Shown here: piece by piece, positions 6,333 to 30,519 of the stretch
How the letters are laid out: each line of letters opens with the position of its first letter
Numbering within the stretch: the stretch's first letter is position 1
Assembly: GCA_041659005.1 (NCBI GenBank)
Contig: JBAZZD010000003.1
Coordinates: 2,650 to 66,649, forward strand
DNA from: Minisyncoccota bacterium
GTDB taxonomy: Bacteria > Patescibacteriota > Minisyncoccia > UBA6257 > GWB1-50-10
Direction of reading: 5' to 3'
DNA length: 64,000 nt
Notes under the pieces: generated by a model
Database searches by the model: none
Told to the model about the DNA's origin: nothing
What the model saw: the letters and a program-made list of their open reading frames with translations, nothing else
Position numbers and translations under genes: made by a program

Positions 6333-8807
6333 ATGAAAAAAGAAGAAAAAAATATTGAAATAGTACACGAGTCAATCCAACCACAAGAAATCACCGACGA
6401 ATTACAAAAATCATATTTAAGTTATGCAATGTCCGTTATTGTCTCGCGTGCTCTTCCCGATGTACGTGATGGATTAAAACCAGTACAACGCAGAATATTG
6501 TGGGGAATGTGGGACATGGGACTCACGCATACCACAAAATTTAAAAAATCAGCAAATGTAGTTGGAGAAGTTATGGGAAAATATCACCCGCATGGAGATC
6601 AAGCTATATACGACTCAATGGCACGTATGGCTCAAGATTTTTCCCTTCGTTATCCACTAGTAGACGGACAGGGAAACTGGGGATCAATAGATGGTGATGC
6701 GCCAGCAGCAATGCGTTATACGGAAGCGCGTCTTACAAAAATTTCCGCCGAACTATTAACTGATGTAGAAAAGGGGACGGTTGAATGGAATCAGAACTAT
6801 GACAACTCGCGTGTTGAGCCAGCATTTTTCCCCGCGAAACTTCCACACCTCTTATTAAACGGAACTGTTGGTATCGCTGTTGGTATGGCGACTTCCATTC
6901 CACCACATAACTTACATGAAATTATTAATGCGGTAATGCATCTTGCAAAACATCCTGACGCGTCAACAAAAGATTTGATGCAGTTTGTTCCTGGGCCAGA
7001 CTTTCCAACCGGAGGTGTGATTTTTGACAAAAAAGCGCTTGAAGAAGCATACGCAACAGGACGTGGATCAGTAACTATTCGTGCTGTTGCAGAAATTGAA
7101 GAACGAAAAAGCGGGAGTTTCCAAATTATCATTACCGAAATTCCCTATCAGGTAAACAAATCGGATCTTATTACAAAAATGGCGGAACTCGCCCAAGAAA
7201 AACGCATTGAGGGGATCAAAGATCTTCGAGATGAGTCAGACAGAGATGGACTTCGAATTGTTGTAGAGTTAAAAAATGATGCGGGACCGCAAAAGGTTTT
7301 AAATCAACTATTTCAATATACTGAGCTTCAAAAGAATTTCTATTTTAATATGTTGGCACTTGAGAATGGAATTTCACCAAGAATTTTTTCATTAAAAGAT
7401 GTTCTCTCTGCATATCTTGACCACCGAAAAATTATGGTGCGCAAGAGAACAGAATTCGATTTAAAAAAAGCTGAAGAACGCGCGCATATTCTTGACGGAC
7501 TCGCAACCGCACTCGATGTTATCGATAAAATAATTGAAACAATCAAGAAATCAAAAGACAAGGAAGAAGCGCGTGCCAACCTGATGAAAAGGTTTAAACT
7601 TTCTGAAATACAGGCAAATGCGATTCTCGAAATGCGCTTGCAGTCACTCGCGGCACTTGAAAGAATAAAAATTGAGGACGAATTAAAGGAAAAGAAAAAA
7701 TTTATTGCTGAGTGTAAGGCAATTCTAAAATCAGATGAACGAATTATCGGCATAATCACCGAAGAACTCATTGGACTTAAAACGACATACCCGAGTGAAA
7801 GAAAAACAAAACTTGTTTCCTCTGGAATCAAGGAATTTAAGGAAGAAGACCTCATTCAAAACGAAGAGGTGATTGTGACCCTAAGCCAAGATGGATATAT
7901 CAAGCGAATGCCACCAACGGTATTTAAGGCACAACGGCGGGGAGGAAAGGGGTTGATCGGTTTTGAATTAAAAGAAGAAGATCAAATACACAAAATTATC
8001 ACCGCCAATACCCACGATAATATTCTTTTCTTCACTGATAAAGGACGGGTATTCCAAACAAAGGTGTATGAAATTCCCGTTGCGTCACGAACGTCAAAGG
8101 GGAAATCAGTACATAACTTCCTTACACTTCCGCCGAATGAAAAAATTTGCTCGGTGGTAAATTATGAAGGTGTTGAGGGTGGAAAGCGTGGAGAGGGAAG
8201 TGGATTTCTCGTTATGGCGACACGAGATGGAATTATCAAAAAAACAGACTTTAAAGATTTCTCTAGTGTCAGAAGAACTGGAATTATCGCTATTACCTTA
8301 AAAGGTGAAGATGCGCTTCAGTGGGCAGATCGCTCCTCGGGAGAAGACGAAATTATTCTTGTAACGGCTGACGGACAATCAATTCGATTTAAAGAAAAAG
8401 ATGTGCGCGCAATGGGAAGAACTGCGTCAGGAATCAAAGCAATACACTTAAAAGGAAAGGATGTCGTTGCTGGATTTTCTATAATTACAAAAGGAACAAA
8501 ATCTGATATCCAATTTCTTGTCATCATGGGAAATGGATATGCAAAACAAACCCCAATCAAAGAATATAAAGTACAAAAACGTGGGGGAAGTGGGATTCGT
8601 ACTGCCAAGACAACAGATAAAACAGGAAAAGTGGTCGCCGCACACATTATTGATGGAAACGCGGAAGAGGTAATTGTATTTTCATCAAAAGGACAAGTAA
8701 TTCGAACAAAACTTTCAGACATCCGCGTCACTGGACGCGCAACACAAGGAGTAAAAATGATGAATCTTGATGCGGGGGACTCAATTATGGGGATTGTCGC
8801 ATTATAA
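6333..8807 (+). CDS. gyrA: DNA gyrase subunit A
   Basis: [26 protein letters not shown] active-site region with catalytic Tyr, C-terminal beta-pinwheel repeats with GyrA box QRRGGKG. Confidence 0.93.
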
Positions 8808-8825
8808 AAATCAATAGAATTATTT

Positions 8826-8858
8826 GCACCACATTATTTAGAATAATGTGGTGGTGCG
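8826..8858 (+). terminator. hairpin downstream of gyrA (possible terminator)
   Basis: gcaccacattattt/aataatgtggtggtgc stem; weak T-run. Confidence 0.35.
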
Positions 8859-9014
8859 CTATAATTAAATATAATGCATTTCTGTAGACAGACACAGACC
8901 GTTAGAAATAATTCTAAAAACGGAATGTGGTTTTAATGGTATATCTAAAAACGTAATATTAAATTATGAATCAAAACAAAATGTCGCAATCAAATACAAA
9001 TTACTTCTAACTGG

Positions 9015-10316
9015 ATGAACAAATCACGAACACTCATTATTGGTGCGGTCGCAATTGGAATAGCACTTTTTGTTCTTATTCTTGTTGGGGTACTTCCTGG
9101 ACTTAATAGTAATGAGGTGAAAAATAATCCGATTTCTATCTCTGTCTGGGGTATAGGAAATGATAATGAATTTTTTGTTAGTTCCGCGGAAATATTAAGA
9201 ACCGAATACCCAAACTTCTCTGTTCAGTATCGTGGATTCTCTGATGAAGAGTCTTATAACTATGCACTTAGTGAAGCTTTTTCGCTTGGAAAAGCACCAG
9301 ACATTATTATGGTTTCGAATGCTGATATTCCAAAAATGAAGAGTAAGATTGCGCAAATTCCTCAACAGTACATTACACAACTTCAACTCCAGCAAACATT
9401 TCCAGAAACAGTGTGGAGATATGATTTTGCTGATAAAAATGGTGTTTATGCGCTCCCATTTACCATTGATACATTAGTGCTTTTCTACAATCGAGACATA
9501 TTAGGAAATGCTGGATTTGTGTACCCACCAGAAACATGGGAATTACTAGAAGAAATGATCCCCACGCTTACAAAAAAGAATGCAACGGGGACACTTGAAC
9601 AATCAGCAATTGCTCTCGGTGGAACTGAACAAACAATTGCACACGCTTCAGATATTCTTGCCTCACTTATGCTTCGTTCAGGAACAAAAATGGTAAGTGA
9701 TGATTTTTCTCGAGCTTCATTTAATAGTAAGGAAGGGGAAACGGCGCTTCAATTTTATACAAAATTTTCTGATCCAAAATCAAAAATATATACATGGAAT
9801 GAAACAATGTCCTACTCACTTGATGCGTTTGCGTCAGAACAAGTCGCAATGATTATTGGATACGAGCGCGATATAAAAATATTACGTGAAAAAAATAAAA
9901 ATCTTAATTTTGGAATTGCTTCAATTCCACAACCAAAGTCAGCGACAAAAACACTAACATATCCTTCGTATTACGGATATGCAATTACTCAACAATCAAA
10001 ACAAAAGGCAATTGCCGCAACATATTTAGTTCGTGCCACACTTGATAAAACAACAGCACAAAAATATGTAGAAAAAGTAGGGGGAACACCAATTCTCCTT
10101 TCACTTATTAATGAAAACATCAGTTCTACCGATAAGAGCGTCTTTGCGCGTCAGGCTCTTGTTGCACGCGGGTATCCACAAATCGATTCAATTGAAATTA
10201 GAACTATATTTTCAGAGATGATCCAGTTAGTTATCTCGGGAACAAAAACTATTGTGGAGGCACTAAATGAGGGGCAAACAAACGTGAATAAACTTTTTTC
10301 ACGAATAAGGTTATAA
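9015..10316 (+). CDS. extracellular solute-binding protein (ABC-transporter substrate-binding family 1-like), membrane-anchored
   Basis: N-terminal anchor then SBP_bac_1-like architecture; sequence-level family call only. Confidence 0.45.
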   Translation: MNKSRTLIIGAVAIGIALFVLILVGVLPGLNSNEVKNNPISISVWGIGNDNEFFVSSAEILRTEYPNFSVQYRGFSDEESYNYALSEAFSLGKAPDIIMVSNADIPKMKSKIAQIPQQYITQLQLQQTFPETVWRYDFADKNGVYALPFTIDTLVLFYNRDILGNAGFVYPPETWELLEEMIPTLTKKNATGTLEQSAIALGGTEQTIAHASDILASLMLRSGTKMVSDDFSRASFNSKEGETALQFYTKFSDPKSKIYTWNETMSYSLDAFASEQVAMIIGYERDIKILREKNKNLNFGIASIPQPKSATKTLTYPSYYGYAITQQSKQKAIAATYLVRATLDKTTAQKYVEKVGGTPILLSLINENISSTDKSVFARQALVARGYPQIDSIEIRTIFSEMIQLVISGTKTIVEALNEGQTNVNKLFSRIRL

Positions 10317-10323
10317 TAACTAT

Positions 10324-10809
10324 ATGAAAGTTTCTCTTTTTGTCTCTGTTGTATTGGTCTTGTTTTTTATATTTATCCCATCACTTTCACTTGCTGCGGA
10401 CCCACCTTCAATATTTAGTGGAATTAATATCTGGCAAAACGCCTACTGCGGAAGCACTAGTAGTCCAATTACAAGCACGGAAGGACCAAAAGGTCCGTGC
10501 GGATTCTGCGATGCTATTATCATTGCGTCAAATGTGATGCGATATATGTTCGAACTTGTTTTTTATATTCTTTTTCCTGTGTTCTTTGCTTGGGGCGGGA
10601 TACAGTTTATGATATCCCAAGGAAACCCAAGTAAGATAAAACAGGCAAGACAAATACTTATCAGCACCGTAATAGGATTTGTAATTGCAGCGGCTGCGTG
10701 GCTTATTATTGGCCTTTTGTTTCACTTAATGACGAATCTCTCTAGTACAAGTTCACCAGACCCAAATAGTGTTAACTCAATTAATCCGTGGAATAAAATA
10801 GAATGTTAG
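10324..10809 (+). CDS. VirB2/TrbC-like pilin family protein (paralog 1)
   Basis: Signal peptide, Cys pair, two hydrophobic helices separated by short basic loop QGNPSKIKQARQ. Confidence 0.55.
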   Translation: MKVSLFVSVVLVLFFIFIPSLSLAADPPSIFSGINIWQNAYCGSTSSPITSTEGPKGPCGFCDAIIIASNVMRYMFELVFYILFPVFFAWGGIQFMISQGNPSKIKQARQILISTVIGFVIAAAAWLIIGLLFHLMTNLSSTSSPDPNSVNSINPWNKIEC

Positions 10810-10828
10810 TCTATATTAATTACATATT

Positions 10829-11149
10829 ATGAAAAAATATATTATCTTCTTTTCCCTTTTCTTTTTCCCATTATTTGTTTTTGCAACAACAACCGTTGAA
10901 TTTCCTAATCTACTCGGCAACGCAACTTTTGGGGGCATTCTTTCAAAGCTCCTAATAATTGCAATGTGGTTTGGGGCAGTGATCCTCACCGGTCTCGTTG
11001 TGTGGTCTGCGTATGTACTTATGTTCTCTAAAGGAGATCCAGCGGAGATAAAAAAGGCAAAAGCAATGTTATTGTACGGCGTTATTGGCTATGTTATACT
11101 TCTTTTTGCAGATGCGATTCGCTTGATTATATTGAATCTTCTCGCATAA
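10829..11149 (+). CDS. VirB2/TrbC-like pilin family protein (paralog 2)
   Basis: Signal peptide, two TM helices, loop KGDPAEIKKAKAM shared with paralog 3. Confidence 0.6.
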   Translation: MKKYIIFFSLFFFPLFVFATTTVEFPNLLGNATFGGILSKLLIIAMWFGAVILTGLVVWSAYVLMFSKGDPAEIKKAKAMLLYGVIGYVILLFADAIRLIILNLLA

Positions 11150-11195
11150 AAGGTCGGATACTAACACATATTTGATACAAATCTGTTATATATAT

Positions 11196-11555
11196 ATGAA
11201 TAAAATTTCAAAAGTGGCAGTTGTCGGATTTTCACTCCTTACTCCTGCACTTGTAATGGCACAGGGACCGTTATCATCAGTAGATACTGTTGGTGGATTA
11301 ATTGGAAAGGTAAATAATTTTGTTAAATTGGCCGTTTCAATCCTTTTTGTGCTTGCGTCCATCTTTATTATCATTGCCGCGTTTAAGTATTTGACCGGAA
11401 AAGGAGATCCAGCGGAGATAAAAAAGGCACAAGCCATGATTGTATGGGCAATCGTCGCAATGATTGTAGCACTTTTCGCATGGGCAATTCCTAAAATCGT
11501 CATAAACTTTATCGGAGCAACTGGCGTGAGTACAATAGAGAGTACTTCGTTCTAA
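11196..11555 (+). CDS. VirB2/TrbC-like pilin family protein (paralog 3; ATG at 11196, track ORF starts at TTG 11172)
   Basis: Signal peptide ending VMAQG, two TM helices, loop KGDPAEIKKAQAM. Confidence 0.6.
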   Translation: MNKISKVAVVGFSLLTPALVMAQGPLSSVDTVGGLIGKVNNFVKLAVSILFVLASIFIIIAAFKYLTGKGDPAEIKKAQAMIVWAIVAMIVALFAWAIPKIVINFIGATGVSTIESTSF

Positions 11556-11557
11556 GA

Positions 11558-11596
11558 TAAAAAACACTCCTGTAACCGCGGGGGTGTTTTTTATTG
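11558..11596 (+). terminator. intrinsic terminator after pilin triplet
   Basis: A-run, GC stem acactcc/ggggtgt, T-run. Confidence 0.55.
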
Positions 11597-11737
11597 GAAA
11601 AATTCGACCCTGCTTAACAACGAAAACATGAAATACATCTCCTTGTCATTCTGAGGGAGTAAAATAACCAAAGGATCTCAATAAAAGGACTTAGGGTTTG
11701 AAAAGAATATGATTACACACTAAAGTAAACCATGTTA

Positions 11738-11822
11738 TGCCGAGGTGGCGGAATTGGTATACGCGCACGGCTTAGGACCGTGTGGGGCAACCCATAGGAG
11801 TTCAAGTCTCCTCCTCGGCACC
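11738..11822 (+). tRNA. tRNA-Leu (anticodon TAG), type II with long variable arm, CCA encoded
   Basis: Acceptor GCCGAGG/CCTCGGC, anticodon loop CTTAGGA, variable arm TGGGGCAACCCA, T-loop TTCAAGT. Confidence 0.85.
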
Positions 11823-11825
11823 AGA

Positions 11826-13130
11826 ATGGAAAAAAAAACACATTTTATTCTTTATGGAATATTATTGCTAAGCATACTTCTTCATGCGTGGCGGCTTCCA
11901 ATACCAAGTCACGCCATGTTTGATGAGGTACATTACGCGACATACGCAGCTGATTATAGAACGAATACACCGTTTTTTGATGTACATCCTCCGCTTGGAA
12001 AATTTATCTATTCTATTCCACTCATTTTTTTGTCAAAGGAATCCTTAATAGAGTCACCATTTATTGAGCCTTCCCCAAATACACCAGTCGTATACAAGAT
12101 AACAAATCGTTCATTTTCAAGATTCCCATACATTCCACTCCGAATCACAAGCGCGTTTTTTGGAACCTTGTTGGTTCTTTCTGTATTTTTATTTATACGA
12201 GAGCTTACCAAAAGTAATACCATTGCACTACTTTCAGCATTTTTTGTAACACTAGAAAATTCAATTCTTGTTGAAACACGATTTATTTTTCTTGATGGTA
12301 TTTTTCTAACATTTTCGTTTTTAGCGCTGTGGCAATTTTTAAAACAAAAGGATTCTGGGGTCTACTCAGGAATTCTTTGGGGGTGCACACTTGCAACAAA
12401 GCTTGTTGGAATTATCTTTCTTCCATTTATTTTGTTTCAAAAAGTAGATTGGTGGAAAAAATGGAAATTTGTTACAGTAGGATTCTTTACTCTTGGAACT
12501 CTCTGGATCGGAATTCAATTATCTGCATTCCCAACAGATAAATGGTACGAATTTACAAAAATGGTCAATACTGATGTTGCAGAAACAATTCCGCACATTC
12601 CACAAAAATTATCTCTTGTAGATAAATCCGTGTTAAAAAGTTATCTTTTTTTGAATGAAATTTCTTGGTCCACAAATGGATACACCACAATTCAGGCGCA
12701 CAATCCATCAGAAAGCAAGTGGTTTGAGTGGCCATTTATGATCGGATCATTCTGTTATGGCGAACGCGCATTTCCTATCTGCCTAATTGGAAACCCAGCA
12801 TTGTGGGGATTTGGATTTTTAGCAGTTCTGTGGACAATCCTTTATATAGCAATTAAAAAACTGAGAAAACAAAAAGTAAGCACAATAGTAACATCTCTTT
12901 TTTTGGGATACGCATCCGTTCTCCTTCCTTTCGCAATAATTCCTCGTTATAAATTAATTTGGCAATATTTTCCCGCACTTATATTTTCGTTGTGTTTGGC
13001 TGCGTATTGGATTGTTACATACAACAATACATTAGGAAAAAGATATCGCATATTTTCTTATATACTACTCCTATCAATTGTGTGCCTTGGTTTCCTCTCT
13101 GTTTCTCCTACAACATTTGGAATTCGCTAG
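11826..13130 (+). CDS. GT39/PMT-family glycosyltransferase (dolichyl-phosphate-mannose protein mannosyltransferase / ArnT-like)
   Basis: DEVHY...DVHPPLGK motif near N-terminus, polytopic membrane protein; track ORF start at 11745 is read-through of the tRNA. Confidence 0.7.
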   Translation: MEKKTHFILYGILLLSILLHAWRLPIPSHAMFDEVHYATYAADYRTNTPFFDVHPPLGKFIYSIPLIFLSKESLIESPFIEPSPNTPVVYKITNRSFSRFPYIPLRITSAFFGTLLVLSVFLFIRELTKSNTIALLSAFFVTLENSILVETRFIFLDGIFLTFSFLALWQFLKQKDSGVYSGILWGCTLATKLVGIIFLPFILFQKVDWWKKWKFVTVGFFTLGTLWIGIQLSAFPTDKWYEFTKMVNTDVAETIPHIPQKLSLVDKSVLKSYLFLNEISWSTNGYTTIQAHNPSESKWFEWPFMIGSFCYGERAFPICLIGNPALWGFGFLAVLWTILYIAIKKLRKQKVSTIVTSLFLGYASVLLPFAIIPRYKLIWQYFPALIFSLCLAAYWIVTYNNTLGKRYRIFSYILLLSIVCLGFLSVSPTTFGIR

Positions 13131-14017
13131 GTCTTCTTCCTTTTTCTTCCATGGAATGCCTCATGAACCTCATGAAGCTCTTTATTGGTAAGATGGGTGT
13201 ACATTTGCGTCGTTGAAATGTTTGCATGCCCTAACATTTCTTGAACTGAACGGAGATCGGCTCCGTTTATTAATAGGTCGGTCGCGAATGAATGTCGAAG
13301 CTGATGGGGATGGACCCGTTTTGATATGCCCGCTTTCCGTGCATAAAAATCTACAAGACGTTGCACGGCACGAGGAATAATTCGTCCCGTAACACTTCCT
13401 GATCTTGAAAGTGATATAAATAATGCCTCCTCGGTATCGCCACGTTTATCTAGATACTCTTTTAAATTCTTTTTTGCAGAGTCTGAAATAAATACCACTC
13501 GCAACTTCTCTCCTTTTCCTCGCACTGAAAACTCACCACGACTAATATCAATATATCGACTCAACGAACAAAGTTCAGACACGCGAAGCCCAGTAGAAAA
13601 TAGCATCTCTAAGATTGCTCTGTCACGAAGAATGCGCAAAGATGCTCCTTCGGGAGCATTAAGTAATCGTTCTAGTTCTGCATAATCAAGCACTTCAATA
13701 TCACGCCGTGCGATTTTTGGAAGTTCTATTGTTTCTGGGGGCAATACTTTTATTCCACGTTTAATGCAATATTTCAAAAGATTTCTAATCGCAATAACAT
13801 AATAGCTTTGAGTTACTTTTTTTGTATTTTCACGAGAAAGTTGCACACGGAAACTCCGTACTGAAGTGTCGGTAATATCTGAGATTTTCTTGATCCCTTG
13901 ATCTCGCAAAAATCGAGAAAGATATCGTTCGTAATTTTCTCTTGTTTTAGGTGAACGATTTTTTTCAATTTCTAAATAATCAAGATATTCTTTTACAATT
14001 TTCTCTGCTTCATCCAT
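13127..14017 (-). CDS. tyrosine site-specific recombinase, XerC/XerD family
   Basis: N-terminal SAM-like core-binding domain, C-terminal R..HxxR...Y catalytic residues (RHSFATDLL, HANISTTQMYTHL). Confidence 0.78.
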   Translation of the reverse strand: MDEAEKIVKEYLDYLEIEKNRSPKTRENYERYLSRFLRDQGIKKISDITDTSVRSFRVQLSRENTKKVTQSYYVIAIRNLLKYCIKRGIKVLPPETIELPKIARRDIEVLDYAELERLLNAPEGASLRILRDRAILEMLFSTGLRVSELCSLSRYIDISRGEFSVRGKGEKLRVVFISDSAKKNLKEYLDKRGDTEEALFISLSRSGSVTGRIIPRAVQRLVDFYARKAGISKRVHPHQLRHSFATDLLINGADLRSVQEMLGHANISTTQMYTHLTNKELHEVHEAFHGRKRKKT

Positions 14018-15251: not shown

Positions 15252-17309
15252 ATGAATTTAGAGAAAAAACAGTTTCAAACTACGCTCCAAGGCGCACCCG
15301 TGACGATCGAGGTGTCCCGTCTTGCTGGGCAAGCAAATGCTGCGGTGATCGGTCGCTATGGCGATACCACGGTTCTTGCAACAGTCGTAATGGGAAAAAG
15401 AGATACAACACTTGATTATTTTCCACTCTCAGTTGATTATGAAGAGCGATTTTATGCTGCGGGAAAGATATTAGGAAGTCGTTTTATCCGCAGAGAGGGA
15501 CGACCATCAGACGATGCAATACTTTCTGGGCGACTTATAGACCGAACCATCCGTCCATTATTTAATCCGCGCCTTCGCAGAGAAATTCAAATCACTATTA
15601 CGGTTCTTACATACGACGAAATCCATGACCCGGAAGAAATTGGGCTTCTTTCTGCCTCTACCGCTCTTTTAATTTCTGACATTCCTTGGGATGGTCCAGT
15701 TGCGGGAGTTCGAAGAGAAATAAAAAAAGGAGGCAACGAAAAAACATATACCTCCTTCTTTTCAGGAACAAAAGATTTTATCAACATGGTTGAATTTTCT
15801 GGAAAAGAAATAGATAAGGGAACTCTTAAAACGGTATTTACTGATTCTCACGAGGAAATAAAAAAACTTATTGTATTCCAACAGGAAATTGCGAAAGAAA
15901 TTGCGAAAGAAAAATCAGATGTGCTGATTCCAGAACCAAGCGAGGAAGCAAAAAATATGGTGCGCACATTCCTTCGTGGAAAAATTGAAGAAGCGCTTCG
16001 TTTGCGAAGTGTTGAACAACTAAAAAATGATATGTTTGAACACCTTCATACATTAGAAAATAATGATGAGGCACTCAGATATGGGGAATTTCTTTTTGAG
16101 ACAGAAGTGGATACATTTGTTCACGACTACGCACTGAAAGAAGGGAAGCGCGTAGACGGGAGAGCATTTGATGAAATTCGTGACCTTCTTGCAGACGTGA
16201 AAATTCTTTCGCGCATGCACGGCTCAGGACTTTTCATTCGTGGAGAAACACAGGTGCTCGCCGTTGCAACTCTTGCTTCGCCAGCCCAGGAACAATTGAT
16301 AGAAACAATGGAAGCAACAACGAAGAAACGATTCATGTTGCATTACAATTTTCCAAAATTCTCAACCGGAGAAGTTGGGCGAGCACGCAGCCTAGGACGC
16401 AGAGAAATAGGACATGGTGCGCTTGCCGCAAAAGCCATTGAACAGGTAATTCCATCTAAAGAGGAATTTCCATACACCATCCGTATTGTTGCTGAAACAC
16501 TTTCTTCAAATGGATCATCATCAATGGCATCAACATGTGCCGCAACACTTGCGCTCATGGATGCGGGAGTTCCAATAAAAAAACCAGTTGCGGGGATTGC
16601 AATTGGACTTATGACAGGGGAAAAGGGAGATTACAAAATACTTACCGATATTCAAGGGCCAGAAGATCATTATGGCGATATGGATTTTAAAGTGACTGGA
16701 ACCGATGAAGGTATTACTGCAGTACAAATGGATGTAAAAATCGGTGGTATTAATCCAGAAATTTTTGAAAACGCAATCAACGCGGCAGAAAAAGCGCGAA
16801 CTCAAATTCTTGAAGTAATGAAAAAGGTAATAAGTGCCCCGCGAAAAGAACTTTCTCCATATGCACCACTCATAAAAATGATTTCTATCAATCCAGAGAA
16901 AATTGGAATGATAATTGGTCCAGGTGGAAAAACAATAAATGGAATTATTGCAAAATGTGGAGGAAACATTTCTATTGATATTGACGAAGACGGAACTGTA
17001 TTTGTTTCAGGAAATGATCACGCAGGCGTATTGAAAGGACTTAGTGAGGTAGAATCACTTTCTCACGAGTATAAAATAGGAGAAATTGTTGAAGGTCCGA
17101 TTGTACGCATTCTTGAATTTGGAGCAATTGTTGACCTAGGAGGAGGACGAGATGGAATGATTCATGTTTCTGAACTCAAAGAAGGATTTGTAAAAAAAGT
17201 TGAAGATGTTGTAAAACTTGGTGATAGAATAACTGCAAAAATAATTCGTGCAGAAGAAGGAAAAATTGGTCTTTCAATTAAGGCAATGAAAGATTTACAA
17301 ATAAAATAA
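15252..17309 (+). CDS. pnp: polynucleotide phosphorylase
   Basis: Two RNase PH domains, FMLHYNFP motif, C-terminal KH and S1 domains. Confidence 0.93.
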   Translation: MNLEKKQFQTTLQGAPVTIEVSRLAGQANAAVIGRYGDTTVLATVVMGKRDTTLDYFPLSVDYEERFYAAGKILGSRFIRREGRPSDDAILSGRLIDRTIRPLFNPRLRREIQITITVLTYDEIHDPEEIGLLSASTALLISDIPWDGPVAGVRREIKKGGNEKTYTSFFSGTKDFINMVEFSGKEIDKGTLKTVFTDSHEEIKKLIVFQQEIAKEIAKEKSDVLIPEPSEEAKNMVRTFLRGKIEEALRLRSVEQLKNDMFEHLHTLENNDEALRYGEFLFETEVDTFVHDYALKEGKRVDGRAFDEIRDLLADVKILSRMHGSGLFIRGETQVLAVATLASPAQEQLIETMEATTKKRFMLHYNFPKFSTGEVGRARSLGRREIGHGALAAKAIEQVIPSKEEFPYTIRIVAETLSSNGSSSMASTCAATLALMDAGVPIKKPVAGIAIGLMTGEKGDYKILTDIQGPEDHYGDMDFKVTGTDEGITAVQMDVKIGGINPEIFENAINAAEKARTQILEVMKKVISAPRKELSPYAPLIKMISINPEKIGMIIGPGGKTINGIIAKCGGNISIDIDEDGTVFVSGNDHAGVLKGLSEVESLSHEYKIGEIVEGPIVRILEFGAIVDLGGGRDGMIHVSELKEGFVKKVEDVVKLGDRITAKIIRAEEGKIGLSIKAMKDLQIK

Positions 17310-17322
17310 TGTTTTGCTTCTC

Positions 17323-17357
17323 AATCCCCGCCAGTCGGCGGGGATTGTTTATTTTTG
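17323..17357 (+). terminator. intrinsic terminator after pnp
   Basis: aatccccgcc-agtc-ggcggggatt followed by gtttatttttgg. Confidence 0.7.
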
Positions 17358-17393
17358 GTTGTGGGTTATTGGTTATTTGCTATACTATAAGCA

Positions 17394-18485
17394 ATGGCAG
17401 ACTATCAATTTCCGGGTCAAAATCAATGGTCGGAAAAACCAACAATTGGAACTGGTGAAGGTGAGTCACCGCTCGTGCCCGCGCCGCAAAACGAAATTAC
17501 GATGCGAACTATGGCGTCTGATGCCACATCAATAAAAGAAATGGGGGGCGGCGACCCGCGTCCTTATGTTCCAAACGTTACACCAATTTCACAAACGCAA
17601 CCGGTTCAAAAAGCTCCGGAAATATCAAATCCAGAAATTCAGAAAATAAATTCTCAACAAACCACAGAAATTCCCGTAATTCCAATTTCTCCAAAAAAAG
17701 GTGGGGGCATGTTCATTGTCATTGCCGTCGTCATTATCATTTTAGGATTAGGGGCAATTGGATATTTTTATGTGTATCCTCAATTTATTTCTCAGGGTAA
17801 TACAGAAATAATAACTGAGACTCCGCAGACAAATGAGCCAATAGTACCAGCGGTAATAGAAACAACAACCGAAACAACTTCTACCACATCAACCGTGCCG
17901 GCCATTGAGACTCCTCCAGCCACAGGACTTGTTGGAAGTCATGCCTCTCTGTTCAAAACACCAGCAGATTTTTCTTCAGAAACAACACTTTCGTCAGAAA
18001 CTGTAGCCGCAATAAAAGAAGCGTGGAAGGGAACAACAGTGGAGGTTCCAGTATTCAAAGAAACCGTATTTAAAAATACTACTGGGGCAATTATTGGAGA
18101 ATCAAAACTTATTCCTTTGTTTCTTCCTTCATTTATTACTGCCTCGTCTTCGCTATTATTTGAAGAAGATTTCACGCTGTTTACCTACACCGACCAAAAA
18201 GATGTGTGGCCAGGAATAATTCTTAAAGCCAAAAAGGATTCACTTGTATCAGCAAAAGAGGAATCAAAAAAAATTGAGTCAAATCTAGATTGGCGCTCGT
18301 TATTCATGCTTGACCCAGGAAAAGAACAAACGTGGAAAGATGGCAAGGTGAGTACGACTCCCGCACGCTATATCTCATTTGCAACGAAAGGAAACTCGCT
18401 TAGTTATACGTGGTTTGATGATATACTTCTTATAAGCACAAACTACCAAGGAGCACAGGACGCAGCAAAGAAACTTGGTTTCTAA
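17394..18485 (+). CDS. hypothetical Pro/Thr-rich membrane-anchored protein
   Basis: Central TM MFIVIAVVIIILGLGAIGYFYV, low-complexity Thr-rich region. Confidence 0.4.
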   Translation: MADYQFPGQNQWSEKPTIGTGEGESPLVPAPQNEITMRTMASDATSIKEMGGGDPRPYVPNVTPISQTQPVQKAPEISNPEIQKINSQQTTEIPVIPISPKKGGGMFIVIAVVIIILGLGAIGYFYVYPQFISQGNTEIITETPQTNEPIVPAVIETTTETTSTTSTVPAIETPPATGLVGSHASLFKTPADFSSETTLSSETVAAIKEAWKGTTVEVPVFKETVFKNTTGAIIGESKLIPLFLPSFITASSSLLFEEDFTLFTYTDQKDVWPGIILKAKKDSLVSAKEESKKIESNLDWRSLFMLDPGKEQTWKDGKVSTTPARYISFATKGNSLSYTWFDDILLISTNYQGAQDAAKKLGF

Positions 18486-18502
18486 CACGAACATATACGA
18501 GT

Positions 18503-19246
18503 ATGCGCAACGCGCAAAAAGAATGGAATCAAATTGCCGCGGAATACGATAAAAAAATCGTACGCGGTGATTTTTTTAGAAAAACAATTCTTGATCCAGC
18601 CCTTATTGGTGAAATGGGTGACGTAAATACACAAAAAATCCTTGATGCTGGTTGCGGGCAGGGATACTTTTCAAAGGTACTTTCTGATCTTGGGGCGCAC
18701 GTAGTCGGAATTGATGTTTCTGATTCGCTTATTACAATAGCGAACGATAGATATAAATCTTCCAACACACTTTCATTTCGTGAGTGTGATATGAATAAAT
18801 CACTTCCTTTCATTGACGACTATTTTGATGCCATCCTCTCAAACATGACGTTTATGGACATTGAGCATCCAGACGTTGCACTCAAAGAATTTGTGCGTGT
18901 AGGGAAAAATGGTGGAAGTATTATTGTCTCGATTCTCCATCCTATATTTACCAGTGGGAAAATATATACTCCTTTTATAGAATATATAAAAAGAAGAGAA
19001 TCATCATTTTTAATAAAACAATATAAAAAGCAGAGATCACTTGAATGGAATATACCTGGAACCACACACGCGACCACTACATTTCATCGTCCATTAGAAT
19101 ATTATATAAATCTCTTTTCTAAAAACATAACGCTCTCACATATGCACGAATTGACACTTCCCAATACACATAAAGAAAATGGTTTTTATAAAATGTTGCA
19201 TACAATTCCAATGTTCTTAATTCTTAAGGGGACTATCAACAAATAG
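18503..19246 (+). CDS. class I SAM-dependent methyltransferase
   Basis: ILDAGCGQGYFS motif I and downstream motifs. Confidence 0.7.
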   Translation: MRNAQKEWNQIAAEYDKKIVRGDFFRKTILDPALIGEMGDVNTQKILDAGCGQGYFSKVLSDLGAHVVGIDVSDSLITIANDRYKSSNTLSFRECDMNKSLPFIDDYFDAILSNMTFMDIEHPDVALKEFVRVGKNGGSIIVSILHPIFTSGKIYTPFIEYIKRRESSFLIKQYKKQRSLEWNIPGTTHATTTFHRPLEYYINLFSKNITLSHMHELTLPNTHKENGFYKMLHTIPMFLILKGTINK

Positions 19247-19286
19247 TGCATTTGCATTTGGGCGAGATACAAAGTATTTTAAATAT

Positions 19287-19628
19287 ATGAGTTTTTCAAA
19301 AGAACAAACAGAGGAGCTTAAAATAAAACTTCTCGAAGAAAAAAAGAGAATTCTTTCACACTTAAAAAGTGCAAAAAAGAGTTCTGGTTTTGGTGGGGGA
19401 GCCGAAGACCCTGAGGACGAGGCAGATGAGACAGAAGAGTTTGCAAATTATCTTGGCGTTGAACAGATTGAAGAAAATTCAATCCACGAAATTGACGTTG
19501 CGCTCGACAAAATGACTGATGGATCATACGGAATATGCGAACAGTGCGACCAAGACATTTCTTATGAATTACTTTCTATTCAACCAGAATCAAAGTTGTG
19601 TAAACAATGCAAACTTGCCGGAAAATAA
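19287..19628 (+). CDS. DksA/TraR-family C4-type zinc-finger protein
   Basis: CEQCDQ...CKQC four-Cys finger at C-terminus, acidic coiled-coil N-terminus. Confidence 0.65.
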   Translation: MSFSKEQTEELKIKLLEEKKRILSHLKSAKKSSGFGGGAEDPEDEADETEEFANYLGVEQIEENSIHEIDVALDKMTDGSYGICEQCDQDISYELLSIQPESKLCKQCKLAGK

Positions 19629-19631
19629 CTT

Positions 19632-21158
19632 ATGAGTGTTCCAAAGATTTTCTCTGCAGAACTCGAGGGAATTGACGCGGAACTTGTTGAGGTTGAGGCC
19701 GACTTACATGTCGGTCTCCATTCATTTAATATTGTCGGATTAGCAGATAAGGCGGTCTCAGAAGCAAAGGAACGAGTTGACTCAGCTTTAAAAAATTCAG
19801 GAATAAAACCTCCATCTAAAGAAAATAGAAAAATAACGATAAATCTCGCTCCCGCAGATACAAAAAAGGCTGGATCCCGTTTTGACCTCGCAATTGCACT
19901 TGCATATCTACTCGCAAGTGAACAGGTAAAACCATTTAATACAACAAAATCACTTTTTATTGGAGAATTATCACTTGATGGAACATTACGTCCTATTTCT
20001 GGCGCTTTAAATGTTGCACTTCTCACAAAACGGATTGGACTCACCTCATTATTTCTTCCGGCACAATGCGCAGAAGAAGCTGCTATTGTCGATGGAATTA
20101 CCATTTATCCAGTAAAAACGCTCTCTGAGCTTATTGAGCACATTGAAACAAGAAAACGAATACAATCACTAAAACATACTGCGGTTACCCAAGCCTATCC
20201 GCAAACAACAACAATGAGTGAAGTGCGCGGGCAAGAAGGGGCGAAACGTGCATTAACCATAGCAGCAGCTGGAGGACATAATGTACTTATGAGTGGCACG
20301 CCTGGAACGGGAAAAACGATGCTTGCAAACGCATTACAAAGCATACTTCCACTTCCATCACTAAAAGAACAGATTGAAATTACTAGTATTTGGAGTTCTG
20401 CTGGACTTACTCAGAGTCGCTCATATATTAAGAACCGCCCGTTTCGCGCCCCACATCACGGAGCGTCACCATCAGCAATTTTGGGAGGAGGAACAAATCC
20501 GCGAGCGGGAGAAATTAGTTTAGCCCATCGTGGCGTTCTGTTCCTTGATGAACTTCCAGAATTTCGTCGCGATGTATTAGAAGGACTTCGCCAACCACTT
20601 GAAGAGGGGAGAATATGTGTTGCTCGCGCGAAAAAGGCGCTTTCGTTTCCCGCACGATTTATACTTATTGGCGCGATGAATCCATGTCCATGTGGATATT
20701 TTGAATCAAACGAAAAAGAGTGTACGTGCACCGCGCATGATGTATTACGGTATCGTAAAAAACTTTCAGGACCTCTTCTTGATCGGTTTGATATTCACAT
20801 AACAGTTCCGCGCGTCCCCATTGAAGAGTTGCGGAGACCTCGAGAAGAGAATGACGATACACAATTTCGCTCATGTGTTGCTCGCGCACGAGAAATTCAA
20901 CAAAAACGATTTGAAAAGTCAGATCTTCCAATACACACAAATTCTGAAATGCGCTCAAAAGATACGGAATTATTCGCAAATCTTTCTGACGATGCTGAAT
21001 TATTTCTAAAAAAGATTCTCGAAAGAAATATCCTTTCCACTCGTGGATATTATAGGATACTTAAGGTTGCAAGAACTGTCGCCGACATTGAATCATCAGA
21101 AGAGATAAAAAAAGAACACCTTGCTGAGGCGTTCCAATATAGAATACAAAGTGACTAA
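19632..21158 (+). CDS. comM: YifB/ComM-family Mg-chelatase-like AAA+ ATPase
   Basis: N-terminal Lon-like domain, Walker A GTPGTGKT, ChlI-type sensor regions, C-terminal ComM domain. Confidence 0.85.
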   Translation: MSVPKIFSAELEGIDAELVEVEADLHVGLHSFNIVGLADKAVSEAKERVDSALKNSGIKPPSKENRKITINLAPADTKKAGSRFDLAIALAYLLASEQVKPFNTTKSLFIGELSLDGTLRPISGALNVALLTKRIGLTSLFLPAQCAEEAAIVDGITIYPVKTLSELIEHIETRKRIQSLKHTAVTQAYPQTTTMSEVRGQEGAKRALTIAAAGGHNVLMSGTPGTGKTMLANALQSILPLPSLKEQIEITSIWSSAGLTQSRSYIKNRPFRAPHHGASPSAILGGGTNPRAGEISLAHRGVLFLDELPEFRRDVLEGLRQPLEEGRICVARAKKALSFPARFILIGAMNPCPCGYFESNEKECTCTAHDVLRYRKKLSGPLLDRFDIHITVPRVPIEELRRPREENDDTQFRSCVARAREIQQKRFEKSDLPIHTNSEMRSKDTELFANLSDDAELFLKKILERNILSTRGYYRILKVARTVADIESSEEIKKEHLAEAFQYRIQSD

Positions 21159-21212
21159 ATCCCGTTAGAGATAATATAATTGAAAAATATTTCTAACAAG
21201 CCCAAATAAAAA

Positions 21213-22256
21213 TTATTGAAGTACAAAGGGGTTTTTTGCTCCAATAACTTCAAAGTGCACGTGGCATCCATTTACCGACTCCGCATTTCCCGTATTTCCC
21301 ATCGTTCCTAAGGTCTGTCCACGAGAAACTACATCTCCTATATCAACAACTATTTCATTAAGATGGGCATATCGCGTTTTTGTTCCATTTGTGTGTTCCA
21401 ACAAAACAAAACTCCCATAGCCTCCGTTCCATCCCAAGGGTCCACTCCCAAATATATCATCTTTTATAGCCACGCCATCTGCGGCAGCAACTACGTTCGT
21501 TTCACATTTATTTGCGATATCAACCGCATTCTCTTTGTGTAGCTCACCCCAATTCCATCCGATCGCAGGAAGTGAGAAAAATCCATTCGTATTTGGAAGA
21601 TTTTTCGCGACGACCTCATTTTCCTTTACTGTCGCATAGGGAAGAAAAATTGTTCCGCTTCCTTCTGAAAAGACGGCAATGTACGAAGGATTAAACTGCT
21701 TAATGAGACTTTGTGACACTTCATATTTTTCAGAAACCGAAACGATTGAATCGTTCGGCTTCACTGAATACAATAATCCATTTGTCGGAAGGATGGTAAT
21801 ACTCTCTCCTCGTTTTACTTCTTTTTTTATCTGTGGATTTGCTAATTGTATTGTAGTGGTGGAAAGGGAAAATTTTGATGCAATACCACGCAATGTCTCC
21901 CCTTTTTGAACTTTATATATTTTTATCCCGTCTCGGGAGGTCCCTATATTTGTACCCGAATATCCCAAGTCGCCCACAAAGCTTTCACTTTGTGGTTCTT
22001 TTATAATTCCTTGGGAAAACCCCCACACTACCGACCCAGAAACGGATGGGTCTTTTATTTCTTCTGAAATTCCACCCCTCTCAAATTTTTGAAGTTCAAG
22101 ATCGTTATTAAAAAACAACGAACCGACAAAAATAACAAGGTATGAGACCACCACGCAGCTAACAACGCACAAAAAACCCAAAAAATGGAATTTTTCCGTA
22201 TTCGGTATAAATCCGCGCAATGCGCGGAGGTGTTTATATAAGTCCTGAATATTCAT
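21213..22256 (-). CDS. LysM-domain M23-family peptidoglycan endopeptidase
   Basis: Two LysM repeats (YKVQKGETLRGIASKF), M23 HxxxD and HVHFEV zinc motifs. Confidence 0.8.
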   Translation of the reverse strand: MNIQDLYKHLRALRGFIPNTEKFHFLGFLCVVSCVVVSYLVIFVGSLFFNNDLELQKFERGGISEEIKDPSVSGSVVWGFSQGIIKEPQSESFVGDLGYSGTNIGTSRDGIKIYKVQKGETLRGIASKFSLSTTTIQLANPQIKKEVKRGESITILPTNGLLYSVKPNDSIVSVSEKYEVSQSLIKQFNPSYIAVFSEGSGTIFLPYATVKENEVVAKNLPNTNGFFSLPAIGWNWGELHKENAVDIANKCETNVVAAADGVAIKDDIFGSGPLGWNGGYGSFVLLEHTNGTKTRYAHLNEIVVDIGDVVSRGQTLGTMGNTGNAESVNGCHVHFEVIGAKNPFVLQ

Positions 22257-22309
22257 ACTATACCAAGATTTTGGTAATTATTCAATTTTTGCTATATAAT
22301 CTTTATTAT

Positions 22310-22660
22310 ATGCGTCTTTTTATTTTTTTGTTCATTTCTCTTGTTGTATTAACACCGCTTGTCTCTTTTGCGGCGGGGCTTGGCTTCGGCGGAAAAGTAA
22401 TAACCTCGGTTTCTGCCCCAATTGTTTGCCTTGGGATTGGGCCAATAACAATAGCACCTGCCGGAATTTCTCCCGCAGCTCTTTATGCAACAGAACCAGC
22501 AACGGTAATAAATAAAAATTATTCAATAACGTCTGGTGGATATATTCTTGGGCTTTATCTTCCAACATTATCTCCTCTTTGTTGGATTCCTGTTCCGCCA
22601 CCAGGAGTGCCTACTCCAATATACGTATTTCCAATTATTACATACGGCTCCTCACGCTAA
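22310..22660 (+). CDS. hypothetical small secreted Gly/Pro-rich protein (internal ATG; track ORF begins at 22220)
   Basis: Signal peptide MRLFIFLFISLVVLTPLVSFAAG; upstream extension would overlap convergent M23 gene. Confidence 0.3.
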   Translation: MRLFIFLFISLVVLTPLVSFAAGLGFGGKVITSVSAPIVCLGIGPITIAPAGISPAALYATEPATVINKNYSITSGGYILGLYLPTLSPLCWIPVPPPGVPTPIYVFPIITYGSSR

Positions 22661-26175: not shown

Positions 26176-26176
26176 A

Positions 26177-28866: not shown

Positions 28867-29955
28867 ATGGACTACTCAAAATTTACCGAAGAACTATTTG
28901 ATGAGCGATACGAGACAATCCCAGCGTCCCTGCGGGCCGCGTTTGAATCAGATAAAACAAAACGAACCCTTGAAAACATTGAACGCGAACATTATTTAAA
29001 TCCTGATAAATCAGTTATTCTCGAACAGTTGGTCGGCTTAACGCTCATGGGATTTATTCCGCTCAGAAATCTTTCGCGCGAAGTTGGAGAGCAATTATTT
29101 CTCAATTTTGAACACGCACAAGTGCTCACGAATGAAATTTATAATCGTGTTCTTGCCCCATATGAGGACGAAATAACAGAGACTTACAAATCAGTGGAGG
29201 AAATGATTGCAGAAAAAGAACAAATTGATGAAGCTATTAATTCGCGAAAAAAGGATTCAATTGAACAGGGGAAGAACGAGAACAACGAAGAAACAATACG
29301 ACCAAGTTTTTTCAGTAAAGAAATAAATGAGTCCCCAATAAAAATTGAGACGTCTGAGGACGCGCCACTCATCATCCATGAGGAGCCATCATTTTTCACA
29401 AAACAGGATCGGAGCGATAGAGAAAAACAAATCGAGACACCATTTAATAGATTTATTCCTTCGTCGTCCGAATCCATAGAAAAAAAGGCGCCACGAGCAA
29501 AGATTGAAGGAGGGAATAACCCATTCTCTTTTCTTAATCCAGCACAAAAAACAACAGTTCATTATAGTGAAACTCGAACTGGATTAAAACAAGAAATTGG
29601 ACCCGAAAACGAGGTGGTAAGCATTGGAGCAATTGACCGAATGACCCAAGGACCACAAGAAGAACAGAAAATTCTTTCAGAAACAAAACCCTTGGGAAAT
29701 ATGATAACTATTCAGACTCCCGAAGTAATAAATATCGCGCCAACAATTGCCACAAAAGCTGATACCTCACTTATAGAATCAGCTGTAATGCCAGAACAAA
29801 AACCAGAGAAAAAATCTTCTTGGATATCAAATATATTCAATCAGAAAAATAACATAAATAAATCCGAGACGCTATTACCCGAAATTCAAATACACGAACA
29901 AAAACCAGAAATAACACAATCGGTAATCCAAGGGAACACTATAAATCTAAAATAA
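28867..29955 (+). CDS. hypothetical acidic protein
   Basis: ORF in operon context only. Confidence 0.35.
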   Translation: MDYSKFTEELFDERYETIPASLRAAFESDKTKRTLENIEREHYLNPDKSVILEQLVGLTLMGFIPLRNLSREVGEQLFLNFEHAQVLTNEIYNRVLAPYEDEITETYKSVEEMIAEKEQIDEAINSRKKDSIEQGKNENNEETIRPSFFSKEINESPIKIETSEDAPLIIHEEPSFFTKQDRSDREKQIETPFNRFIPSSSESIEKKAPRAKIEGGNNPFSFLNPAQKTTVHYSETRTGLKQEIGPENEVVSIGAIDRMTQGPQEEQKILSETKPLGNMITIQTPEVINIAPTIATKADTSLIESAVMPEQKPEKKSSWISNIFNQKNNINKSETLLPEIQIHEQKPEITQSVIQGNTINLK

Positions 29956-30012: not shown

Positions 30013-30519
30013 ATGGCATCATTCCAAGTGCCCCAATTTATTGAGGAAAAGCCAAAAATTATATCGTTTTTTACACTACAACAATTCCTGCTTCTTGGGG
30101 GCGCAGCAATTTTTTCTATTGTTCTTTATTATATTTTTTCAATGTTTTTGTGGGTATTGCTTTCTTCGTTGATTATTGGAAGTGCCGCTGCACTCGCGTT
30201 TGTAAAAATAAGCGGCCAAGACCTTCCAAAAGTTGTTCGCTCGGCATTTCGTTATTATTGGAATCCGCGCAGATATGTGTGGGAACGGGCAATGGAAGAA
30301 ACATCTATTGATTCTGGGTCATTTGAAAAAATATCATCAATGCGTCGCGCAATGAGTATTCAAGAAAAGCTTAAAAAAATGGCCGAATCAATAACCACCG
30401 GTAAATTATTTAAACCAGAGGATGCGCTTCCTGAAGGGACAAAACTACCAAAAGGGAAATATGAAATCGTTACATACCTTACCGGAGAAAAAAGAGCCGC
30501 GAAACGTGTTGATTTCTAA
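30013..30519 (+). CDS. VirB3/PrgI-like small membrane protein
   Basis: Two adjacent TM helices near N-terminus, immediately precedes VirB4 pieces. Confidence 0.4.
   Translation: MASFQVPQFIEEKPKIISFFTLQQFLLLGGAAIFSIVLYYIFSMFLWVLLSSLIIGSAAALAFVKISGQDLPKVVRSAFRYYWNPRRYVWERAMEETSIDSGSFEKISSMRRAMSIQEKLKKMAESITTGKLFKPEDALPEGTKLPKGKYEIVTYLTGEKRAAKRVDF

Follow-up and report, generated by a model that had tools for sequence, protein, structure and literature searches.

Background

What three small adjacent genes of a patescibacterium encode, and whether they are variants of one another or distinct parts of one machine, is the question raised by the locus described here. These genes (A, B and C in what follows) are located in a 64,000-nucleotide stretch of DNA, called the window below (assembly GCA_041659005.1, contig JBAZZD010000003.1, positions 2,650 to 66,649), which is an origin-proximal piece of the chromosome of a metagenome-assembled genome (MAG) labelled Candidatus Paceibacterota. 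A preliminary description, made from the sequence alone, had interpreted them as three tandem VirB2/TrbC-like pilin paralogs distant from VirB4 and had suggested antigenic or functional variation of a surface filament. A large part of bacterial diversity belongs to the Patescibacteria, which live attached to other microbes. For the single species in which this has been tested, a type IV secretion system (T4SS) and a pilin array are essential for this attached lifestyle; the cargo of such systems and the formation of a pilus are the question at stake.

The data presented below point, with a probability of roughly 0.7 in our estimate, to A, B and C being anciently diverged VirB2-like T4SS pilins of the PF18895 family that would be assembled by a nearby VirB4/VirB3/VirB6-like machine into a pilus-like tube or a channel extension. 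New here are the grouping of specialised subunits into a fixed trio, seen in Paceibacterota as well as in several further classes, the tie of these pilins to a gene encoding a solute-binding protein (SBP), and the fusion of the same module to cell-wall hydrolases. This linkage and these fusions are hints at a use in wall breaching and uptake at host contact, and the three subunit types do not appear to be recognition-evading variants.

Three adjacent genes of the PF18895 pilin family

The three consecutive small open reading frames (ORFs) of the preliminary description are all present on the plus strand, the start of the third being moved to position 11196:

10324-10809, plus strand: pilin paralog A, 161 aa (PF18895, 37.4 bits)
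10829-11149, plus strand: pilin paralog B, 106 aa (PF18895, 35.9 bits)
11196-11555, plus strand: pilin paralog C, 119 aa (PF18895, 36.6-36.8 bits)

Each protein scores above the curated gathering cut-off of PF18895 (T4SS_pilin; 26.6 bits, whole-protein score) with E values of ca. 1e-9, which bears out the core of the first interpretation, namely three tandem pilin paralogs of the VirB2/TrbC type. Precomputed annotation of identical database proteins likewise gives PF18895, and the NCBI name of the protein identical to paralog A is "pilin". Pairwise identity among the three is 23-34% (B and C align by BLASTP with an E value of 2e-12 and 35% identity), a likeness that is far beyond chance. In a six-frame scan of the window, no further ORF with the pilin module, small ORFs included, was detected beyond the trio and two fusion genes presented below.

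The mechanical ORF of paralog C begins at a TTG (11172-11555, 127 aa). The ATG at 11196 was retained as the true start because the resulting 119-aa product is identical to a database protein (P0001, NCBI/JGI), whose source is a Candidatus Paceibacterota MAG, and because its orthologs all start with MN(K/R)(I/V)S. Two antisense ORFs (10528-10725 and 11186-11503) are unsupported mechanical overlaps and were discarded.

The link to classical conjugative pilins was assessed on a family alignment comprising 27 members, 36-89% identical to C, plus A and B. All 27 members match PF18895, seven match PF04956 (TrbC/VirB2; best E 1e-7) and eight match DUF4134 (PF13572; best E 1.8e-4), which we take to be a Bacteroidetes TraE/VirB2-type pilin family; a faint PF04956 match was also found in the ortholog of B from locus L005. 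Since seven of the 27 members match PF04956, similarity to VirB2/TrbC does exist at the family level. By these profile matches the link is real for the family and transitive only for A, B and C, so that the PF04956 comparison came out positive among the relatives and negative for the window proteins themselves (see below). The family, which is the VirB2-like pilin family typical of Patescibacteria, is large, with 56,408 representatives at 50% identity (E<=1e-3). Comparison with Flp and type IVb pilins indicates that the three are not type IV pilins: they have signal-peptidase-I-type leaders and two helices, the G/xxxxE(Y/F) prepilin-peptidase site is absent by eye, and no Flp or pilin Pfam match besides PF18895 was obtained for any of them.

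Hydropathy profiles reveal three hydrophobic segments in each protein, corresponding to an N-terminal signal peptide and two long helices. AlphaFold2 models of A (helices 3-21, 61-97 and 102-140; pLDDT 80, built on a shallower alignment) and of C (helices 3-22, 32-67 and 72-106; pLDDT 77) contain the same elements, and the topology first proposed is therefore upheld by both approaches. The signal peptides end in sites of the AXA type, as judged by eye, between SLA and AD in A, VFA and TT in B, and VMA and QG in C. In paralog A, the signal peptide (aa 1-24) is followed by a Cys-rich outer N-segment (25-60), a helix (61-97), the loop SQGNPSKIKQAR, a second helix (102-140) and a Ser/Thr-rich tail with the final residues PWNKIEC. 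Paralog B has a signal peptide at 1-19, an N-segment with FPN(P/L)LG, a helix at ca. 36-66, the loop SKGDPAEIKKAK and a tail-less helix at ca. 79-106, and paralog C a signal peptide at 1-22, a helix at 32-67, the loop GKGDPAEIKKAQ, a helix at 72-106 and the tail GATGVSTIESTSF. The short basic loop has the consensus G(D/N)P..IKKA across the three, and its motif reads GDPAEIKKAKAM in B, GDPAEIKKAQAM in C and GNPSKIKQARQI in A; the motif initially assigned to two of the proteins fits B exactly, while C departs from it at a single residue.

Conservation of the trio

Orthologs in a 1:1 relation to each of A, B and C occur in relatives (loci L001, L003, L005-L007, L009-L013, L015 and L021) at identities that go down to about 30-40%, and each paralog can be recognised by a signature of its own. 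Paralog A carries four cysteines, C42, C59, C62 and C161, located in AYCG, GPCxxCD and the C-terminal PW..I.C; paralog B has FPNPLG right after the signal peptide; and paralog C has FKYLTGKGDP together with IES..F at the end of its tail. On the contigs carrying an ortholog of C (76-89% identity, one at 37%), the genes occur in the order gyrA, SBP, pilin A, B, C, xer, rpsO, NYN and PNPase. Across 16 orthologs and relatives, five residues of A (W37, C59, C62, W156 and C161) show no variation; they could provide a disulfide staple between the outer N- and C-segments of this protein.

Whole-gene dN/dS values, calculated against four relatives, are 0.09-0.11 for A, 0.18-0.25 for B and 0.07-0.16 for C, with 0.02-0.04 for the neighbouring gyrA, 0.06-0.07 for PNPase and 0.08-0.12 for the SBP gene. 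Conservation among orthologs is 69-96% in the helices and the loop (96% in the loop of B) and 39-67% in the outer N-segments and tails; variable ends combined with conserved helices and turn are as expected if the ends are exposed and the helices and turn make contacts with a polymer or with lipids. No recent duplication or gene conversion was seen among A, B and C, and no silent cassettes were found elsewhere in the window.

By these comparisons the trio is ancient, fixed and under purifying selection, a pattern which argues that A, B and C are specialised, non-interchangeable subunits. Paralog C is the most conserved of the three and A is the type that would carry a cell-wall hydrolase in other lineages (see below). 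Antigenic variation is disfavoured because each paralog has 1:1 orthologs with its own signature and because dN/dS ranges from 0.07 to 0.25; of the two kinds of variation first suggested, the functional one is the better half. The size of the pilin array differs across metagenome loci, from 2 to 6.

Linkage to a solute-binding protein gene

The trio is preceded by an SBP gene and followed by a hairpin:

9015-10316, plus strand: membrane-anchored solute-binding protein (SBP_bac_1/8; PF13416, 80 bits; PF01547, 78 bits)
11556-11595, plus strand: intrinsic-terminator-like hairpin with A- and U-runs, directly after the stop of pilin C

The NCBIfam matches of the SBP are remote (MalE/GanS/UgpB). Gaps of only 7 nt (SBP to A), 19 nt (A to B) and 46 nt (B to C) separate the genes. 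As RNA, the hairpin folds at -22.3 kcal/mol (z = -6.1), none of 200 shuffles folding as well, and no comparable hairpin is reported between the four genes. Promoter-like sites occur only upstream of the SBP gene, and these are weak, the scan overall being not above chance. From the short gaps, the sole strong hairpin after pilin C and the better promoter-like sites upstream of the SBP gene, we infer a putative four-gene operon composed of SBP, A, B and C, with the hairpin as its likely end. Neither an ABC permease nor an ATPase turned up in the window proteins that were scanned.

Whether this linkage extends to other genomes was examined by two scans. The first, seeded on pilin C with one genome per species, recovered the gyrA-SBP-array arrangement in MAGs labelled Paceibacterota, Brennerbacteria, Liptonbacteria, Microgenomatus and Saccharibacteria; three saccharibacterial loci (L018, L020 and L022) have an array without SBP that adjoins VirB6-like, PrgI, TrsD and VirB4 genes. 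The second was seeded independently on the SBP (relatives 31-41% identical) and considered metagenome loci with enough downstream sequence. An ORF matching the pilin profile lies directly downstream of the SBP gene and on the same strand in 57 of these 57 loci, and the same adjacency was found in 11 genome or contig loci. The commonest array has three pilin ORFs (20 of the 41 loci with at least 3 kb downstream; these are stop-to-stop ORFs, which can overlap). As for gyrA, it is located at most 800 bp upstream in 42 of 50 loci and at most 5 kb upstream in all 50, on the same strand in 49. The order gyrA, SBP, pilin array and xer (6333-14017 in the window) is kept across several Patescibacteria classes (L009-L016, L021, L024 and L026-L105). 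Because gyrA is equally fixed beside the SBP gene, co-function is inseparable here from frozen synteny. In the literature searched, neither the SBP linkage nor the 1:1 conservation of three pilin types is mentioned.

Two features downstream of the trio were considered and rejected. A PMT-type glycosyltransferase gene (ca. 11826-13130) is no conserved glycosylation partner, as it lies behind the terminator and a tRNA-Leu gene and is absent at that place in L005 and L011-L016. A mobile island at the tRNA-Leu gene with an integrase was likewise dismissed, since the order of the Xer-type recombinase, rpsO, NYN and PNPase genes is kept in all relatives and there is no deviation in G+C. The mechanical ORF of the glycosyltransferase (11745-13130) begins within the tRNA-Leu(tag) gene (11739-11823), its probable true start being the Met at ca. 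11826 (MEKKTHF).

Pilin module fused to cell-wall hydrolases

The preliminary description had noted the same module at the N-terminus of two distant hydrolase fusions, which correspond to the following genes:

35303-36847, plus strand: pilin-module fusion, 514 aa, with a C-terminal LAS/M15-like zinc-peptidase motif (H..D ... HxH; PF18895, 20.4 bits)
37768-39165, plus strand: pilin-module fusion, 465 aa, with a C-terminal lysozyme-like SLT_3 domain (PF18895, 22.0 bits)

Both products have a signal peptide, a Cys pair, the two-helix module and a shared middle domain. Their own PF18895 scores are sub-threshold; relatives with 33-50% identity carry PF18895, several of them together with PF18896, and one is named "pilin" by NCBI. 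The shared module thus holds in architecture, its profile match coming from the relatives. At the C-terminus of the 514-aa protein, matches to HH_signal, Peptidase_M15_3 and M15_4 were obtained at E values of 0.06-0.17, and a weak alignment (E 0.37) to the Sonic hedgehog N-domain (7rhq) spans the conserved SxHYxGxAxD, which we read as the LAS metal-site motif. In the 465-aa protein, SLT_3 (PF18896) reaches 14.3 bits, and 29.2 bits, above threshold, in a relative from L014; E359-S360 and S387xGLFQxN are invariant in 17 sequences. When the fusion profile and the C-terminal domains were searched against PDB, only the weak Hedgehog/LAS match was returned for the 514-aa protein and none for the lysozyme-like domain. 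Given these motifs, the weak domain matches and the relatives with PF18895 and PF18896, the designation as hydrolase fusions is right, and the two are real proteins combining a pilin with a cell-wall hydrolase.

Fusions of this kind also occur at the position of the trio. In L011 (6470-7483), L013 (6278-7186) and L021 (6575-7486), position A is occupied by a fusion of ca. 300 aa in which an A-type module with the same W/C pattern is joined to an M15/LAS-like domain, and in L014 and L016 a pilin-SLT_3 fusion is found within the SBP-linked array. By its sequence, paralog A looks like a cargo-less form of such a carrier module. As both ends of the hairpin would point outward, a C-terminal enzyme would come to lie on the outside of either the membrane or a filament.

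The two fusion genes of the window share a stretch of 393 bp of perfectly identical DNA (35411-35803 and 37876-38268) that covers the pilin module and the linker. Its flanks are ca. 40-85% identical and the C-terminal domains (M15-like and lysozyme-like) are unrelated; recent gene conversion, a cassette-like exchange or an assembly artefact could account for this identity. Many relatives consist of single polypeptides with 2-17 concatenated pilin modules behind one signal peptide, for instance six in 552 aa or 17 in 1775 aa. One with six modules (P0015, L025:1777-3435) is a contiguous ORF located among four single-module pilin genes, and P0025 is another relative with concatenated modules.

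The type IV secretion region of the window

The window, with a G+C content of 0.33-0.42 throughout, contains the landmarks gyrA (6333), ksgA/rsmA (22579) and yidC (40256), as well as dnaA (41616) and dnaN (43190), which were recognised by eye. A Gram-positive-type (MPF-FATA-like) T4SS occupies ca. 24-39 kb, origin-proximal near dnaA, and includes:

26144-28843, plus strand: candidate VirB6-like polytopic membrane protein with a long charged C-terminal half, proposed from the positions of homologs
30013-30519, plus strand: PrgI (VirB3-like; PF12666, 32 bits, cut-off 27)
30522-31178, plus strand: TrsD-like protein (free-standing VirB4 N-terminal domain; NCBIfam TrsD, E 4e-8)
31456-33207, plus strand: VirB4-like ATPase of the CD1110 family (NF045971, 374.5 bits, cut-off 325; PF19044, E 1e-27)

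The VirB4 gene is thus indeed distant from the pilin trio, by ca. 20 kb and roughly 18 genes. For the TrsD-like protein, the TrsD and VirB4 N-terminal matches are all below their cut-offs; the gene is kept beside VirB4 in L018, L020, L022 and a Pontibacillus plasmid (L008). No Pfam or NCBIfam match was obtained for the candidate VirB6-like protein, whose N-terminal half shows, by eye, multiple hydrophobic stretches; its homologs (phmmer E 1e-8 to 1e-10) occur between the pilin array and the PrgI/TrsD/VirB4 genes in the Saccharibacteria L018, L020 and L022. Neither a relaxase nor a coupling protein was found among the window proteins scanned.

Other genes of this region were noted in passing. 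A protein with LysM and Peptidase_M23 domains is encoded just upstream of the T4SS cluster (21213-22256, minus strand) and is a possible VirB1-type wall hydrolase; such domain combinations have been reported for VirB1 homologs near virB4 in Paceibacteria (PMC12102498). The proteins encoded at 24211-26175, 28867-29955, 33447-35316, 37052-37618 (minus strand) and 39166-39744 have no Pfam match, or a sub-threshold one, and no NCBIfam match was obtained for those of them that were compared with NCBIfam as well. They include a secreted protein of 654 aa, an acidic one of 362 aa and a membrane protein of 188 aa, the latter on the opposite strand between the fusion genes. A small ORF (22220-22660, 146 aa) with the signal-peptide-like stretch MRLFIFLFISLVVLTPLVSFAAG extends into the start of ksgA and is a putative gene without any family match. 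Finally, a PilB/GspE-type ATPase (T2SSE, E 3e-116) is encoded at 53408-55084 (minus strand) and shows that the genome also possesses machinery for a type IV pilus or for type II secretion, distinct from the T4SS pilins.

Proposed assembly and competing explanations

Starting from the observed family, hairpin shape, conservation pattern and co-occurrence with a T4SS, the export, cleavage, assembly and host-contact role of the pilins may be pictured as follows. Each pilin would be exported by Sec and then cleaved by signal peptidase I, after which it would remain in the membrane, its two ends outside and its G(D/N)PxxIKKA loop facing the cytoplasm. The VirB4/VirB3/VirB6-like machine, whose genes lie 13-22 kb downstream, would take the subunits out of the membrane and build them into a pilus-like tube or channel extension used by the epibiont at the host-cell contact. 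The three subunits would not be interchangeable, one being for example the major and two the minor or adaptor subunits, and the SBP would be co-expressed with the pilin trio.

Several observations weigh against this interpretation. None of A, B and C matches PF04956 (TrbC/VirB2) at E<=1. The family profile finds no solved conjugative pilin significantly among PDB sequences (best match, pKM101 TraM 8cw4, E 0.42), the other matches being de novo designed helical proteins only, and Foldseek comparison of the models of A and C with PDB yields nothing below E=1, a two-helix hairpin being too simple to be diagnostic. The trio is located ca. 20 kb from virB4, and what adjoins it directly is the gene of a solute-binding protein rather than that of a T4SS component. 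The check proposed at the outset, for a nearby signal peptidase or TraF-like cyclase, was negative: the window proteins that were scanned include no S26/TraF-like maturation peptidase. Relatives with 2-17 modules per polypeptide are not obviously compatible with free pilin monomers. A T4SS pilus has been observed in no patescibacterium and is so far only a possibility (PMC12857230), and the surface filament is one that we infer.

The main alternative, which we regard as unlikely, is that A, B and C are membrane-resident T4SS channel parts lining or extending a channel through the monoderm wall, with no extracellular pilus. This would agree with Gram-positive-type T4SSs being generally reported as pilus-less (PMC12102498, PMC10633639), with the absence of an observed pilus in Patescibacteria (PMC12857230) and with the occurrence of two related genes in a T4SS cluster on a Bacillota plasmid (see below); the polypeptides with 2-17 modules would then correspond to 4-34 transmembrane helices, and the module at the N-terminus of the cell-wall hydrolases could be a plain membrane anchor. 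Pilins are favoured instead by the profile link of the family to true pilins (TrbC/VirB2 and DUF4134) and by the conserved helices and turn with variable outer ends, which fit polymer packing, and such arrays are treated as pilins in the literature (PMC12102498, PMC12857230). A quite different explanation, and a very improbable one, holds that the three are interchangeable isoforms by which a single filament would vary its antigens or host range. This has been proposed for the virB2 arrays of Bartonella and Anaplasma and raised also for Patescibacteria arrays (PMC12102498). The copies are indeed tandem and diverged (23-34%), their exposed N- and C-segments are the most variable parts and array size ranges from 2 to 6 among loci, but each paralog keeps its own 1:1 ortholog and diagnostic motifs across relatives in which synonymous sites are saturated, whole-gene dN/dS is 0.07-0.25, and neither recent duplication or conversion within the trio nor silent cassettes in the window were detected.

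More improbable still is that the proteins are no T4SS parts at all and are small membrane proteins aiding the SBP in uptake or sensing, their likeness to PF18895 reflecting generic hairpin composition. Such a role would account for the strict SBP-pilin adjacency (57/57 loci) and for the ca. 20 kb between the trio and virB4, and weak matches to many unrelated membrane families illustrate how far composition can drive such scores. One ortholog is labelled Tic20-like protein by JGI. It is contradicted by the scores of all three above the curated PF18895 cut-off, by the PF18895 matches of 27/27 relatives, by the Saccharibacteria (L018, L020 and L022) in which the family occurs beside VirB6-like, PrgI, TrsD and VirB4 genes without SBP, and by the Bacillota homolog within a conjugation cluster; moreover, with gyrA equally fixed beside the SBP gene, the linkage is perhaps partly frozen synteny.

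The reading of A, B and C as VirB2-like pilins can be extended to a larger picture, which is speculative and which we hold to be unlikely as a whole. The pilin trio and its invariably linked, orphan, membrane-anchored SBP would form one functional unit in which a T4SS tube is coupled to the capture of host sugars or glycans or to host-wall binding; the A-type module, stapled by cysteines in place of the cyclisation of VirB2, would display cargo on the filament; this cargo, an M15-type peptidase or lysozyme-like domain in other lineages and in the two fusions of the window, would cut the host wall; and the poly-pilins would represent covalent stretches of filament. Three leads emerge from this locus: the linkage to the SBP gene, the carrier module of type A and the relatives in the form of poly-pilins.

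Comparison with known systems

Tandem pilin arrays have already been published, and the present locus is therefore a further example and no new kind of element. The six-gene pilin array of Candidatus Southlakia epibionticum ML1 is essential for epibiotic growth (Wang 2023, PMC10633639), and a pilin array is also known in TM7x (PMC10633639, PMC12102498, PMC12857230). Quinonero-Coronel et al. 2025 (PMC12102498) used PF04956 and PF18895 to screen 3,035 Patescibacteria genomes. VirB2-like pilins were present in 1,948 assemblies, of which only 1,135 have them near virB4, and 441 arrays of 2-11 pilin genes with a mean identity of 25% were recorded in 383 assemblies; the same study located the T4SS near dnaA in Paceibacteria. 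The three adjacent genes described here, with 23-34% identity, fall under its definition of an array (at least two tandem, highly diverged pilin genes). They share with the published arrays PF18895, the tandem arrangement and a comparable identity, and also a monoderm MPF-FATA-like T4SS with PrgI, TrsD and VirB4, its origin-proximal position near dnaA and ksgA, and the lack of a relaxase or coupling protein, here among the window proteins scanned. They differ in being a fixed trio ca. 20 kb from virB4, located between gyrA/SBP and xer and apparently co-transcribed with the SBP gene.

Like the VirB2/TrbC pilins of diderms (PF04956; T-pilus, RP4 pilus), the three proteins are small and have a signal peptide (cleaved in the former, predicted here), two hydrophobic helices, a short basic loop and, in the topology proposed here, both ends outside. 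RP4 TrbC and VirB2 mature by head-to-tail cyclisation through a TraF-type peptidase. VirB2, TrbC and TraA have long leaders, whereas the signal peptides of A, B and C are of ordinary length (19-24 aa). Further differences are the lack of a direct PF04956 match, no TraF-type cyclase being found among the window proteins scanned, the conserved terminal Cys of paralog A, and a monoderm host in which a pilus would be deduced only. Flp and type IVb pilins are likewise small, hydrophobic and often tandem, but have one N-terminal helix in place of the signal-peptidase-I-type leader and two membrane helices seen here. The virB2 arrays of Bartonella and Anaplasma (cited in PMC12102498) also comprise several diverged virB2-like genes in tandem; these belong to diderm MPF-T systems of intracellular pathogens that face adaptive immunity, whereas the present genes are orthologously fixed and under purifying selection.

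Finally, the Mbov_0395 family (NF045849), known from Mycoplasma integrative and conjugative elements and from conjugative elements of Bacillota, is the best NCBIfam match of A, B and C (17.9, 24.7 and 34.0 bits, respectively), yet all are below the 40-bit equivalog cut-off, and the window pilins are chromosomal and not carried by a mobile element. The only plasmid match by tblastn at E<=1e-3 is a gene of a Pontibacillus megaplasmid annotated as Mbov_0395 family pilin-like. On this plasmid (Pontibacillus sp., NZ_CP062975.1; L008), a tandem pilin-like pair (11767-12682) matches the patescibacterial profile with E values of 9e-15 and 2e-12 and is located upstream of a TrsD-like gene, a CD1110-family VirB4 and a peptidoglycan endopeptidase (15384-21326). 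This pair conflicts with the general view that VirB2 homologs are lacking from Gram-positive T4SSs, and suggests that pilin-like genes of the same family already accompany some Gram-positive MPF-FATA-type systems. The published idea that Patescibacteria co-opted their pilins from diderm systems may therefore not be needed.

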